Source of the DNA: an uncultured Candidatus Saccharibacteria bacterium
GTDB taxonomy: Bacteria > Patescibacteriota > Saccharimonadia > Saccharimonadales > JACDBH01
Assembly (NCBI GenBank): GCA_964458165.1
Contig: CAYWFI010000004.1
Coordinates: forward strand, 1-24,000
Length of the DNA: 24,000 nt
Direction: 5' to 3'
Shown: positions 5,713-9,413 of the stretch, piece after piece
Position numbering within the stretch: position 1 is the stretch's first letter
Layout of the letters: every line of letters starts with the position of its first letter
Notes under the pieces: generated by a model
What the model saw: only the letters and a program-made list of their open reading frames with translations
What the model was told of the DNA's origin: nothing
Database searches by the model: none
Translations under genes and position numbers: made by a program

Positions 5713-7029
5713 CTAAACATCGCGCACGCTGCCAAAAGCCACGCGGTCCAGAATTTCACCGCGCATGTCCATCATGGCGGCCGGGACTATAACGAACTCG
5801 CCGTAGCGGTTATTTATCTCGTCAACCGCATCCGACACGTGCCGTTCGGCGCCGAAGTTACGCTCATCACTCAGTAAACTCAACTGTTCCGGGTCAGCCG
5901 GGGCAAGGCCAAAGGTCGTGATGCTCATACCGCGTACTTTGTCGTAGATTTCGGCCCTTTGCAGCAGTGATTTGGCGGCGCGGTAAATGCTTTCGGTGCT
6001 ATAGAGGCGAAAGCCGACCTTTTCGCCGTGGTGCCAGGCGTTACGGCTATCCAGCCTCTCGCCGCCTATAAAACCGTTATCTCTCTTGGGCGCATCCTGA
6101 TAATTGACAAAGCTCAGGTACAGGTGGATACCGCCGGCGGTCAGACCAACCTTGCGCAGTCTACGGCCTACTTTTTCGCACAATTTCATCAGCAACCGCG
6201 CCAGTTCTTGTTTATCGGTGGTTTTGTGGGGCAGGGCGTACTGGTGGCCAATTTGGGTCCGTTTGGACTCGTATTTGTCAGTTTCGTAACCGCGCAGGCG
6301 CAAATACCAGTAGTAGCCGGTAATACCCCTGAAGACGACTTTTTCTAGCAGGCGTCGATCGGCGCGCAAAAAATCCAGCGGAGTCATGATGCCATATTGT
6401 CGCAGCCGCGCCTGGTAACGGATGTTGATACCGGGCAGATCAACCAGACTCATTCCGTCGTACGTTGCCTCCAGATTGGTATGGTCGATCCGCCGCATGC
6501 CGTCGGGCTTGTCAAACCCAGCCGCGAACTTGGCTAAGAACCTGTTGGGCGCGATGCCGATATTGACGGTTACGGCCTCGCCAATGTGCTCCCGTATCCG
6601 TTGTTTGATGTCCAGAGCGATAGCTTCTATTGCTATCCCAGCTCGAACTTTGGGCGACCCTTCCAGATGCAGCACGAACTCGTCGATACTTTTGGGCGAA
6701 ACATCATCGGTATATTCCAGCATCAGGTTCTTGAACCTGCGATGTGCCTCACGGTATTTGGCCGGGTCGGGTGTCATGATGATAATATCCGGACAGAGCT
6801 GACGGGCTTGGGCCACATTGACGCCCAAGCGGATCCCCTTGCGCTTGGCCTGGTAGCTGGCCGCCAGCACAAAGCCCCGCGGCGTGTCATAAGCCGCCAC
6901 GGCCACCGGCCGGTCGCGCAGCAATCGGTTAGCCTGCTGCTCGATAATGGCAAAGCAAGAGTTCAGGTCTATATGCATAACCCGCGGCTGCGAATGGCTA
7001 ATTGGTAAATTATTATCTTTCATGGTCAT
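5713..7029 (-). CDS. Y-family (translesion) DNA polymerase, DinB/UmuC type
   Basis: 438 aa. N-terminal MHIDLNSCFAIIEQ motif, RPVAVAA...GFVLAASYQAKRKGI, and the catalytic SIDEF (Asp-Glu) motif, which suggests an active enzyme. Confidence 0.9.
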   Translation of the reverse strand: MTMKDNNLPISHSQPRVMHIDLNSCFAIIEQQANRLLRDRPVAVAAYDTPRGFVLAASYQAKRKGIRLGVNVAQARQLCPDIIIMTPDPAKYREAHRRFKNLMLEYTDDVSPKSIDEFVLHLEGSPKVRAGIAIEAIALDIKQRIREHIGEAVTVNIGIAPNRFLAKFAAGFDKPDGMRRIDHTNLEATYDGMSLVDLPGINIRYQARLRQYGIMTPLDFLRADRRLLEKVVFRGITGYYWYLRLRGYETDKYESKRTQIGHQYALPHKTTDKQELARLLMKLCEKVGRRLRKVGLTAGGIHLYLSFVNYQDAPKRDNGFIGGERLDSRNAWHHGEKVGFRLYSTESIYRAAKSLLQRAEIYDKVRGMSITTFGLAPADPEQLSLLSDERNFGAERHVSDAVDEINNRYGEFVIVPAAMMDMRGEILDRVAFGSVRDV

Positions 7030-7031
7030 AA

Positions 7032-7505
7032 ATGTTATATAATTTCTACATGGCTAGAGAGCGAGGCTTTATGGTGCGCGGCGAATCACTGCAAGATCCT
7101 GATGTGGTGGAAACTGTTATGAAAGATTTAGGCGAACTGGCAGCAATACATAACTTGCAAGTGGATCCGGTAGGATTCCGGATTATTACAGAGGACGATA
7201 TATGGGAGCGTAACCCGGCAGGGCTCACCAGAGAAGACTTTAATCGTCTTGTTACTAGCCCCACGGATATCCCAATGAAAGGCACCATTACGCGGGCTTG
7301 GCGAGCCGCTCTGCGAGAAGCCCGTCGATACCAAAGAACAAACAAAACAGAGACAGGAGAGGATGCCATACCGGCTGAGTTTATCCAAAAGATTGTGGAT
7401 GATGCCAACAAATATGGTAAATATCCTATCAGCGCCGGCGAGGCATCACTGGCCATGATGCAGTCGGTACTTGATCACACGCGCCCCGCAGAACCGCGTA
7501 CCTGA
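7032..7505 (+). CDS. Hypothetical protein; the true start is probably ATG 7050 or 7071
   Basis: 157-aa ORF with globular-looking composition. TATAAT at 7038-7043 lies 6 nt before ATG 7050 (leaderless option). GAGG lies 5 nt before ATG 7071 (SD option). The opposite-strand ORF 7046..7456 has antisense-like Ser/Arg/Ala-rich composition. Confidence 0.55.
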   Translation: MLYNFYMARERGFMVRGESLQDPDVVETVMKDLGELAAIHNLQVDPVGFRIITEDDIWERNPAGLTREDFNRLVTSPTDIPMKGTITRAWRAALREARRYQRTNKTETGEDAIPAEFIQKIVDDANKYGKYPISAGEASLAMMQSVLDHTRPAEPRT

Positions 7506-7675
7506 ACAGAGGCTTGCGTGATTATTTCATTTAGATGCACGACCTTGCGCTTGTCCGGCTCGCGCTCATAGACAAGTCGTTGGGCGGCCAGTTCTAGACG
7601 CATGGCATGCAGTATCTGTCTGACTTCTTCGCGCTGGGCGTGCTTACGACGGTTTTTCATCCCGTTATAACCCAC
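7475..7675 (-). CDS. Hypothetical small basic helical protein; GTG start at 7675 or ATG at 7660
   Basis: 60-66 aa, Lys/Arg-rich N-terminus (MKNRRKHAQREEVRQILHAMRLELAAQR). It is the last ORF of the minus-strand string 8517 to 7475. Its 3' end overlaps the convergent ORF 7032..7505 by 31 nt. The start region lies inside a 16-bp inverted-repeat arm. Confidence 0.4.
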   Translation of the reverse strand: MGYNGMKNRRKHAQREEVRQILHAMRLELAAQRLVYEREPDKRKVVHLNEIITQASVQVRGSAGRV

Positions 7676-7763
7676 TTTCCGCTAGTTGCTGGGGTGGCTG
7701 AAACAATGTGCCGGGGTTCAACCGCCAGTATGCGAATGGTCGTCTTTTGGGTTATAACGGGAT
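7659..7763. repeat. Perfect 16-bp inverted repeat enclosing a 73-nt spacer
   Basis: atcccgttataaccca (7659-7674) is the exact reverse complement of tgggttataacgggat (7748-7763). One arm abuts the stop codon of ORF 7764..8057. The other arm covers the start region of ORF 7475..7675. Confidence 0.9.
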
Positions 7764-8057
7764 TCATGCTTCGCTCCTTCCGTAAGTAGGTGCCATTTCG
7801 TCAGCTGTCATATATTCCTCTAGCGTCCACTGGAGACTGTCGGTGTGTAGGGCTAACTTAAAATAAACTCGCTCCTGTTTGTCGGCGATAGAGAAATGAT
7901 GAACCTGATGCTTCCCGGCCCAAGTCTTGTGCCAGAAGTCTATTTTGCCAAGGTAATATTCTTGATTATTCCAGGTCAGCATGTAGGGTTGCATGTGTTT
8001 GGTTCGGGCATTGTAGTACCACACGACGCTAACAGGTTCGTCTAATGATTCACGCAT
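7764..8057 (-). CDS. Hypothetical protein, paralog A of a tandem pair (97 aa)
   Basis: GGGGGG Shine-Dalgarno 5 nt upstream of the ATG. It shares an ungapped motif block with ORF 8194..8517: LTWN..(E/D)Y.LG...FW........VHH...D......F.L.L.T..L.W.L. Confidence 0.7.
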   Translation of the reverse strand: MRESLDEPVSVVWYYNARTKHMQPYMLTWNNQEYYLGKIDFWHKTWAGKHQVHHFSIADKQERVYFKLALHTDSLQWTLEEYMTADEMAPTYGRSEA

Positions 8058-8077
8058 GGCAACCCCCCTTCAGGAGC

Positions 8078-8190
8078 AATTCTCAATTTACAATTTACAA
8101 TTTTCAATGAAGGCAGCGGCGAAGCCGCGCTAATTGATTCATTGAGGTAATTGAAATTGAATGAAAATTGAAAATTGGTACTTGAGAATT
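8078..8190. repeat. Heptamer-rich imperfect palindromic intergenic element, copy A
   Basis: Outer perfect 9-bp arms aattctcaa (8078-8086) and ttgagaatt (8182-8190). Inner arms are built from CAATTTA/CAATTTT units on the left and TGAAAAT/TTGAAAT units on the right. Inner stem tcaatga/tcattga. Central GC hairpin gcggc-gaa-gccgc. A related copy lies at 22551-22657. Confidence 0.8.
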
Positions 8191-8193
8191 TAT

Positions 8194-8517
8194 TCATACC
8201 GTTACCCCCGCGAAATTCCGGCCCGCAAATGAGCCTATCGAAGCCGCCTTAGTAGCCTTATCCAGACTCCAGGTCAGATTCTCGGTTTCTAGAGACAGCT
8301 CAAAAGTATACTCGCCGTATTCATCGCTAACACGGTAGTGATGCACCAGTACATTGGCACGATGTTCGGCGTACCAAAACTGTACCCCGCCAAGGAAATA
8401 ATCCTCGCCGTTCCAGGTCAGACGCACAGGCCGGGCGTACTGGTCGCGTCCATTAAAGCTAAACAACACATCCACCACGTTTTTATTTTTATTAGAAGAG
8501 AAGAGGCTGTTACGCAT
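8194..8517 (-). CDS. Hypothetical protein, paralog B of a tandem pair (107 aa)
   Basis: GGAG lies 9 nt upstream of the ATG. It is paralogous to ORF 7764..8057, with about 20 identical positions in an ungapped stretch of ~56 residues by hand count. Confidence 0.7.
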   Translation of the reverse strand: MRNSLFSSNKNKNVVDVLFSFNGRDQYARPVRLTWNGEDYFLGGVQFWYAEHRANVLVHHYRVSDEYGEYTFELSLETENLTWSLDKATKAASIGSFAGRNFAGVTV

Positions 8518-8744
8518 ATCAAATCACTCCGCTTTAGTTGATTAAAGGGGTGTGGCAGCTTAACGTACACGCTGCTACTAGACGAAATTGATATGATAGG
8601 CATCCGACCAAAGAGGTAAGACGGCTATAGTTTGCGTAAAGCCCGCGCGGAGGAATTTTGGGGTTAACCAACAAGCCCACACGTGACTAATAGTAGTATA
8701 GCATTAGCACTACGAAGCAGGTCAATACCTATTCGTAAGTTACA

Positions 8745-9413
8745 ATGGTTCCTATGAAGTTACGGTTCAGGGACAAAAAACGAGAGATCGGTGATATCTG
8801 GTCATTCTTTTTTGAACCCCTGGAACCAGTAGAATGGCAAGCCGGGCAATCTATCCGCCTGGAGCTGCCGCGGCCCACCTGGGGCACGGAAGAACGACGT
8901 TTTACTATCGCGTCCGCCCCTTGTGAAGGGCATGTACAAATTACTACAAGAGTAAGTAGTAGTGAGTTCAAACAAAACCTAGCCAGGTTAAAAAAAGGCT
9001 ATGAGCTCGATGGTCACAACATCGATGGCGATTTTGTTTGGAACGACACTGGCCGCCCCAAGCTTTTTCTGGCTGCCGGCGTCGGCATCACGCCGTTCCG
9101 GGCAATGCTGGCGCAAAGTATTCACGAGCAAAAACCACTTGAAGCCACACTGCTATATAGCAGCAAAGACAATCCAGCAGTATTCCAAACCGAGCTGGAG
9201 CGCTGGCAGCAACATCATAGAGATTTCAGCCTTGTAATCACCGATAAACGCTTTATTATTGAACCCGAGTCAACACTGCTGCCGCGGTGGCTGGAAAGCT
9301 TGATATACATATCTGGTCCCGAGCAAATGGTGCATCAGCTAGGACAGTTGCTAGTGGCAGCCGGGCTGCCAAAAAACCAGCTCAAACAAGATTTATTTAC
9401 TGGAAATTTGTAA
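8745..9413 (+). CDS. FNR-family FAD/NAD(P)-binding oxidoreductase; the start is probably ATG 8754
   Basis: RRFTIAS (the RxY(T/S)-type FAD-binding motif), GVGITPFRAML (NAD(P)-binding glycine motif) and a length near 220 aa. TACAAT (8741-8746) lies 7 nt before ATG 8754. Confidence 0.8.
   Translation: MVPMKLRFRDKKREIGDIWSFFFEPLEPVEWQAGQSIRLELPRPTWGTEERRFTIASAPCEGHVQITTRVSSSEFKQNLARLKKGYELDGHNIDGDFVWNDTGRPKLFLAAGVGITPFRAMLAQSIHEQKPLEATLLYSSKDNPAVFQTELERWQQHHRDFSLVITDKRFIIEPESTLLPRWLESLIYISGPEQMVHQLGQLLVAAGLPKNQLKQDLFTGNL

Follow-up and report, generated by a model that had tools for sequence, protein, structure and literature searches.

Does a pair of small paralogous genes lying close to the gene of a Y-family DNA polymerase belong to the business of that polymerase, or does it merely share its neighbourhood? 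The question is raised by a contig of an uncultured Candidatus Saccharibacteria bacterium (CAYWFI010000004.1 of assembly GCA_964458165.1), of which a stretch of 24,000 nucleotides (nt), hereafter the window, was analysed. The operon genes lie on its minus strand, where two genes that we call parA and parB are followed by a small basic open reading frame (ORF), a gap of 445 nt and the polymerase gene (Table 1). A preliminary description of this DNA had taken parA and parB for paralogs with a common motif, had placed a UmuC/DinB-type polymerase about 450 bp further on with only one divergent ORF in between, and had suggested an accessory or regulatory role for the small proteins with respect to that polymerase. 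All of this agrees with our findings: the two proteins are identical at 33 of 103 positions (32%; BLASTP, E 2e-21) and share the motif P..LTW...Y.LG..FW......VHH......F.L.L.T..L.W.L, the gap holds a single ORF on the plus strand, and the downstream gene encodes IMS and IMS_C domains (Pfam, E 3e-33 and E 4e-16); the role gains support from the comparison of loci given below, while its physical side is something that we infer. We regard it as likely that the stretch is a translesion-synthesis operon, in which two paralogs resembling ImuB's C-terminal domain (ImuB-C) would act as accessory proteins of the downstream Y-family polymerase.

Linkage to the polymerase gene

When one genome per species was scanned, 20 loci were found (L001 to L020), all of them in Saccharibacteria, and at every one of these 20 species-representative loci the family gene or genes stand upstream of the polymerase gene and share its strand. 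Thirteen loci have the order parA, parB, small ORF and polymerase gene on one strand; the other seven, which are more distant, have one parB-type gene that either abuts the start of the polymerase gene or overlaps with it. Neighbouring genes of the compact loci overlap by ATGA or lie 1-5 nt apart, and the ancestral state would therefore be a translationally coupled operon. The same linkage is seen among 151 genomes sampled from the order Saccharimonadales (hereafter the order sample): 48 of them contain the family, and in 46 of these 48 an IMS polymerase gene follows it immediately downstream in the same orientation, one of the two exceptions standing at a contig end and the other being a weak partial match. 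Homologs are thus tied to polymerase genes rather than scattered, which is the outcome of a neighbourhood check that the preliminary description had called for.

The position upstream of the polymerase gene is informative in its own right, for at 55 polymerase genes the same slot contains a short gene of the Peptidase_S24 (UmuD-like) kind, and not one polymerase gene in the order sample has both an S24 and an ImuB-C-like gene. This either/or occupancy of the slot is the strongest comparative argument for regarding the small proteins as a counterpart of UmuD. The polymerases of the two kinds of locus are also told apart by the length of the IMS match, 450/453 nt versus 432-438 nt. Examples of the S24-filled slot in other Saccharimonadales are G256:C6:69956-70772 and G196:C24:69559-70378; three genomes (G184, G218 and G272) possess modules of the two types at different loci, with G218 having two of the ImuB-C type and one of the S24 type.

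The catalytic motifs HIDLNSCFA and KSIDEF of the polymerase are intact in the window and kept among orthologs, and going by these motifs the window polymerase is an active Y-family enzyme. Its C-terminus presents three conserved elements in order, namely a clamp-binding motif (EQLSLL), SDAVDEINNRYGEF and the tail MMDMxGxILDRxAFG; among orthologs, both the motif SDA(V/L)DxINNRYGEF and the tail MMDMxGxILDRIAFG are kept. The middle element is a candidate RecA-NT-like motif, a motif that corresponds to the N-terminal part of DUF4113 (Timinskas and Venclovas 2019, PMC6511836), and positions 3-23 of DUF4113 were matched in 10 of 15 orthologs at a sub-threshold level (best E 0.0026). RecA is present in the genome of the window, which is 89.7% complete; at that completeness no S24/LexA gene was found in it, and none was found in two near-complete genomes of the same family. 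DnaE2 was not found either, since the genome holds one DnaE.

Kinship with standalone ImuB-C proteins

Homologs of both proteins are numerous in word-indexed searches, which returned 94 related clusters for parA and 126 for parB, with identity to the query over nearly the full length going down to 56-58% among the matches listed; the names given are "hypothetical protein" of Candidatus Saccharibacteria/Saccharimonadales, and no cluster matched by parA or parB bears a Pfam domain. Likewise, the scans of Pfam, NCBIfam, PHROGs and PADLOC gave nothing significant for parA, parB, the small ORF or the 157-residue ORF of the gap. Peptidase_S24 (PF00717, the domain with the Ser-Lys dyad) had no match in parA, parB or the small ORF, and the YolD-like family (PF08863) had none in the Pfam scan at E<=1. 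The AlphaFold2 (AF2) model of parA is all-beta, with six strands over residues 15-90 and a predicted local distance difference test (pLDDT) score of 80; against the PDB, Foldseek found nothing for this model below E 0.29, against the PDB and BFVD together no match below E 0.001 and no template-modelling (TM) score >0.5, and a sequence profile found no match among PDB chains.

Where the family searches proposed in the preliminary description came back empty from Pfam and NCBIfam for the paralogs and the small ORF, a chain of profile-profile comparisons does reach ImuB-C. Three alignments were used: the window family (A1), a set of proteins of about 85 residues (A2), and canonical DUF6504 proteins together with ImuB C-termini (A3). 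An exhaustive search with the A1 profile collected 471 representatives at E<=0.001, mostly 82-88 residues long, and A2-type members of about 85 residues sit in LexA-X-IMS polymerase operons of Planctomycetota. The arrangement lexA-imuB-C-polY was first described by Aravind et al. 2013 (PMC3765255) and again by Timinskas and Venclovas 2019 (PMC6511836); according to evidence cited in the latter, Geobacter's lexA-imuB-C-polY operon is damage-induced and transcribed as one unit. In hhalign comparisons, A1 was matched to A2 at 99.9% (E 9e-35) and A2 to A3 at 96.4% (E 1.1e-9, 84 columns). With respect to the DUF6504 model (PF20114, gathering score 24.2 bits), the more distant members of the family reach 14-22 bits, below threshold, and the Planctomycetota LexA-X-PolY protein reaches 20.2 bits over model positions 6-100; the proteins P0368 and P0373 carry precomputed PF20114 matches. 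In Planctomycetota genomes the model strongly matches free-standing proteins of about 110 residues and also the C-termini of ImuB-type proteins of 516-583 residues. Moreover, ImuB-C was reported in 2026 as a beta-barrel of novel fold (PMC12926913), with which an all-beta parA model that has no PDB relative is in agreement.

On this transitive evidence we accept that the window proteins belong to the DUF6504/ImuB-C superfamily. The mention of DUF6504 in the preliminary description thus holds at the superfamily level, by way of the intermediates of about 85 residues, but not at the level of the Pfam model, which misses the window proteins. The linkage to the polymerase gene, the slot shared with UmuD-like genes and the profile chain together lead to the reading of the window proteins as standalone ImuB-C homologs, and by the same profiles parB would be a free-standing ImuB-C domain protein that has diverged strongly. 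Literature searches for DUF6504 by name, and for Saccharibacteria with ImuB, found nothing. Two gene arrangements met in the survey have a different composition. On a marine metagenome contig (L024/L025, 4001-4691), LexA is followed by an ImuB-C-like gene (84 residues) and a gene for 118 residues, with no polymerase gene nearby; in a planctomycetote (L030, G021:C209, about 1500-1830), a canonical DUF6504 gene (about 110 residues, 107 bits) stands between a gene for 381 residues and an ORF for 177, not beside a polymerase gene, and the same genome also has the LexA-X-PolY form at 20 bits.

The conservation of the two proteins allows their history to be traced. Residues P30, W35, L42, G43, H59, H60, L74, L81 and W83 are invariant in 21 orthologs, and in A3, too, a W is invariant. 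A maximum-likelihood tree unites the parA sequences in a single clade (100/100) whose branch is very long, and parB groups with the single-copy genes, being 59-65% identical to those of L014-L020; judged by this tree, parA is a duplicate of parB that arose inside one family of Saccharimonadales. Two parB-type proteins, P0182 and P0212 (148 residues), have a Ser/Gly-rich insertion, about 50 residues long, that separates the HH motif from the strand after it. One could suspect chance ORFs or decaying remnants in proteins so short, devoid of annotated domains and with repeats inserted between them; this suspicion is contradicted by the intact orthologs at 56-86% identity in >200 protein clusters, by the invariant residues, by a confident fold prediction and by the conserved N-terminal half of the small ORF, and we give it practically no credit.

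Several points nevertheless weigh against the reading of the locus as an operon of ImuB-C-like accessory proteins with their polymerase. PF20114 has no match to parA or parB at E<=1, and a six-frame search of the whole genome gave 0 matches to it. Compared directly, A1 and A3 match weakly (10.5%, E 0.003, with the register retained), so that the homology rests on the intermediate set A2 and is transitive, not direct. The canonical basic motif RFxWRG of ImuB-C is replaced by LTWN or LSWN in Saccharimonadales, and the RecA-NT-like label of the polymerase motif rests on sub-threshold matches. In the window, co-transcription with the polymerase gene is uncertain because the antisense gene separates it from the small genes. 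Finally, the literature consulted reports no test of the biochemical role of a standalone ImuB-C (PMC8072749).

A neighbouring explanation keeps the homology and changes the role: as ImuB-C homologs, parA and parB would be damage sensors or DNA binders that recruit or license the polymerase, and not stable subunits of it. Aravind et al. (PMC3765255) indeed proposed ImuB-C as a non-catalytic DNA-damage-sensing domain, present also beside non-polymerase repair genes, and it fits with such a role that a relative stands in the LexA-X-118-residue locus without a polymerase gene (L024/L025) and that canonical DUF6504 proteins can be encoded elsewhere than beside a polymerase gene (L030). However, the conserved basic residues of the canonical proteins are gone in those of Saccharimonadales, the linkage to the polymerase gene has hardly any exceptions and often goes with translational coupling, a UmuD-like subunit occupies the same slot in sister lineages, and AlphaFold models (PMC12926913) put ImuB-C in protein-protein contacts; a sensor role therefore appears unlikely to us. 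Much more improbable is an unrelated module that happens to share the polymerase neighbourhood, such as a toxin-antitoxin system, an immunity pair or a small regulator. Tandem divergent small paralogs with a small basic protein can look like such modules, a direct family match is wanting, and the antisense gene parts the string from the polymerase gene in the window; yet that gene is an insert of variable occurrence, the family gene stands directly upstream of the polymerase gene in 46 of 48 genomes, and distant relatives are found in LexA-X-polymerase operons of another phylum. Toxin-antitoxin, immunity and defence readings were rejected on the null results with PADLOC and PHROG, the polymerase linkage and the profile chain to ImuB-C.

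The small basic protein, the folded leader and local insertions

Table 1. Features of the operon region in the window (strand given as + or -; a point marks features without strand)
Feature	Position	Strand	Description
Y-family polymerase gene, DinB-type	5713..7029	-	438 aa; IMS and IMS_C domains, Pol IV models
Antisense ORF	7032..7505	+	157 aa; variable insert between small ORF and polymerase gene; no family match
Small basic two-helix protein	7475..7660	-	61 aa; conserved N-terminal half MKNRKKRxQREEVRKILHAMRLELAAQRL
parB-small ORF spacer	7659..7763	.	perfect 16-bp inverted repeat 7659-7674 / 7748-7763
parB	7764..8057	-	97 aa; ImuB-C-like; ortholog of the single-copy gene abutting the polymerase gene in other Saccharimonadales
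parA-parB spacer	8058..8193	.	136-nt palindromic; copy of a dispersed repeat
parA	8194..8517	-	107 aa; divergent ImuB-C-like, younger and faster-evolving paralog
Operon 5' leader	8515..8601	-	helices P1, P2 and P3; block conserved across 12 loci

The third small gene of the string belongs to the same story as parA. Its longest frame is 7475..7675(-), 66 amino acids (aa), and its start is most likely the ATG at 7660, because all 13 orthologs begin there with M[KR]xRKKRxQREEVR. A basic helical ORF of 60-66 aa had been expected to follow the paralogs; it is present, with helices at residues 2-32 and 43-58 in the AF2 model (pLDDT 79), but the upper length does not stand, and the product would have 61 aa. 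Orthologs occur in 13 loci, without exception between parB and the polymerase gene, and within the order sample the protein is confined to four genomes, all of the window's family and all with two paralogs. As the small protein is present only where two paralogs occur, parA and the small protein would be a joint innovation at the family level. Searches of Pfam, PHROG, PADLOC and the PDB gave no match to the small protein, and Foldseek of its model was empty.

Upstream of parA, the 5' leader of the operon is predicted to fold into three helices. The outer one, P1, pairs CAUAUCAA (8595-8588) with UUGAUAUG (8522-8515), the AUG included; P2 is a hairpin of GCAGC (8575-8571) and GCUGC (8559-8555) around the loop GUGUACGUUAA (8570-8560); and P3 is a small hairpin directly 5' of the Shine-Dalgarno (SD) sequence GGAG (8530-8527). 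The P2 stem has compensating changes at 3 pairs and its 11-nt loop, GUGU(A/U)CGUUAA, is conserved. An outer helix that pairs a block near -80 to -70 with the SD-AUG region is part of the minimum-energy fold for most of the 20 leaders. The arms of P1 vary by lineage and are still complementary (CAUAUCAA/UUGAUAUG, CACAAUAC/GUAUUGUG, AAGCUUCCAAAU/AUUUGGAGGUUU and UCAAAAAAUCC/GGAUUUUUUGA), with a matched one-base change of length in L019 (A7/U7); duplexes of cognate arms average -15.7 kcal/mol versus -10.8 for non-cognate ones, and in 12 of 18 leaders no foreign arm pairs as well as the cognate one. Shuffles made for each sequence are individually weak for P1. RNAalifold recovered only the P2 hairpin (-2.0 kcal/mol) from a MAFFT alignment of the leaders; P1 was tested sequence by sequence because indels shift its arms between alignment columns. 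Rfam had no match over 7400-8800. We regard the conserved folded leader as likely to be real.

Compared with the compact loci, the tight ancestral operon has been loosened in the window by three insertions, that is, two hairpin spacers and the antisense gene. The preliminary description had seen that large inverted repeats fill both gaps between the small genes; they are indeed there and fold as hairpins, but as local insertions and not as conserved parts of the operon. The spacer between parA and parB contains the inverted repeat 8078-8111/8157-8190 (34-nt arms, 82% complementary) and folds as RNA at -37.7 kcal/mol (z -2.6). At least 12 further contigs of this genome bear copies resembling it, and a related copy occupies the same site in L001; it is missing in L002, L005, L006, L009 and L010, where the genes overlap or abut. 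The dispersed repeat is a heptamer-rich palindromic family, seen on contigs C1, C9, C10, C13, C20, C21, C24, C25, C38, C43, C52, C60, C61 and C79. The spacer between parB and the small ORF folds as an RNA hairpin that ends at the AUG of the small ORF (-40.3 kcal/mol, z -4.2); it has a single copy in the genome and is missing in L005, L006, L009 and L010, where parB and the small ORF overlap by ATGA. A role of the two hairpins as conserved regulatory parts of the operon was rejected, as they are missing in compact relatives and one of them is a dispersed repeat. ORFs of 36 and 51 aa within the spacers, with ATGA overlaps, are taken as by-products of the inserts; the 51-aa frame recurs only in the repeat-bearing L001.

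Homologs of the antisense ORF occupy the corresponding site, with the orientation unchanged, in L010 (39% identity, E 7e-27) and L004. Most loci lack this ORF, and there the small ORF either abuts the polymerase gene or overlaps with it. An antisense gene of about 140-160 aa is seen in a minority of loci (L010, 6790-7266; L004, 3797-4213; possibly L003, 7063-7752), and where it recurs it is always divergent from the polymerase gene. A scan for sigma-70 promoters and terminators performed no better than on shuffled sequences.

Proposed assembly and its place among known systems

It is tempting to picture how such an operon of ImuB-C-like accessory proteins could work. The products of parA and parB would be small beta-rich accessory subunits of the downstream active polymerase and would dock on its conserved C-terminal tail, beside the RecA-NT-like motif, in a manner that we liken to UmuD'2 on UmuC, YolD/YqjX on YqjW and the fused ImuB-C in ImuB. 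The two proteins may pair as a heterodimer, and the 61-aa basic helical protein, gained together with parA, could be a further subunit or an adaptor. Expression would probably be set by the leader, whose outer helix is predicted to cover the SD sequence and the start codon, in a genome where LexA was not detected. Carried to its full extent, the picture becomes that of a multi-subunit mutasome in a LexA-less family, composed of PolY, a heterodimer of ImuB-C paralogs, the 61-aa subunit and probably RecA, in which an RNA leader and not LexA would hide the ribosome-binding site until a damage-related signal; this complete version is speculative, and we would rather doubt than expect that all its parts hold.

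The closest known system is that of the lexA-imuB-C-polY operons, called GeoPolY-like, of the Geobacter sulfurreducens GSU0042 type, also found in Planctomycetes and Deferribacteres (PMC3765255, PMC6511836, PMC12926913). In both, a small all-beta protein (about 85-107 aa), whose C-terminal Trp is conserved, has its gene directly upstream of that of an active PolY with a RecA-NT-like C-terminal motif (a candidate one in the window), the families are connected by profiles, a PolY-ImuB-C-RecA module is predicted, and DnaE2 is found in neither. The window differs by having two paralogs instead of one, together with a conserved 61-aa helical protein, and by a probable structured RNA leader where the LexA box would be, no lexA having been found in its operon or genome; furthermore, its proteins are missed by the Pfam DUF6504 model and have lost the canonical basic motif, and the host is a bacterium of the candidate phyla radiation (CPR) with a reduced genome.

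The likeness to ImuB's C-terminal domain in the ImuA-ImuB-DnaE2 mutasome (PF20114) lies in the common superfamily, as reached by transitive profiles, and in the adjacent Y-family fold and RecA-NT-like motif, the latter a candidate one in the window. In ImuB, however, the domain forms a fusion with a catalytically dead polymerase and has DnaE2 and ImuA as binding partners, whereas in the window it is free-standing beside a polymerase that appears active; DnaE2 was not found in the genome of the window, and ImuA was not searched for. Another known damage-tolerance operon also has a standalone ImuB-C, of about 80 aa, but there, unlike in the window, the member of the Y family is inactive, the part of the polymerase falls to DnaE2 and control by LexA/RecA has been shown experimentally. 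With UmuD'2C (Pol V) and YolD/YqjX-YqjW, the window has in common a small beta-rich protein, in the window a putative accessory one, whose gene stands directly upstream of a Y-family gene, which is a functional analogy, and the two copies of the small subunit in Pol V have a parallel in the two paralogs; in contrast to UmuD'2C and YolD, the window proteins have no S24 or YolD match and no sign of self-cleavage, and ImuB-C is reported to lack the SH3-like barrel of UmuD' and YqjX (PMC12926913).

The system is accordingly a lineage-specific variant of the known module of standalone ImuB-C and PolY. What is new is the duplication and the 61-aa protein with two predicted helices, neither of which extends beyond one family, the fact that no LexA was found, and the conserved folded leader. 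Standalone ImuB-C has been known since the sequence comparison of 2013 (PMC3765255), and a compact system of four genes, in which neither DnaE2 nor LexA was detected, lets its role beside an active PolY be tested. Current Pfam models miss the family in candidate-phyla bacteria, whose annotations list its genes as hypothetical. That the slot before the polymerase gene is filled within one order by either a UmuD-like or an ImuB-C-like gene offers comparative evidence for ImuB-C as a functional counterpart of UmuD, and the folded leader hints at how bacteria that have no SOS repressor may control a polymerase of damage tolerance.

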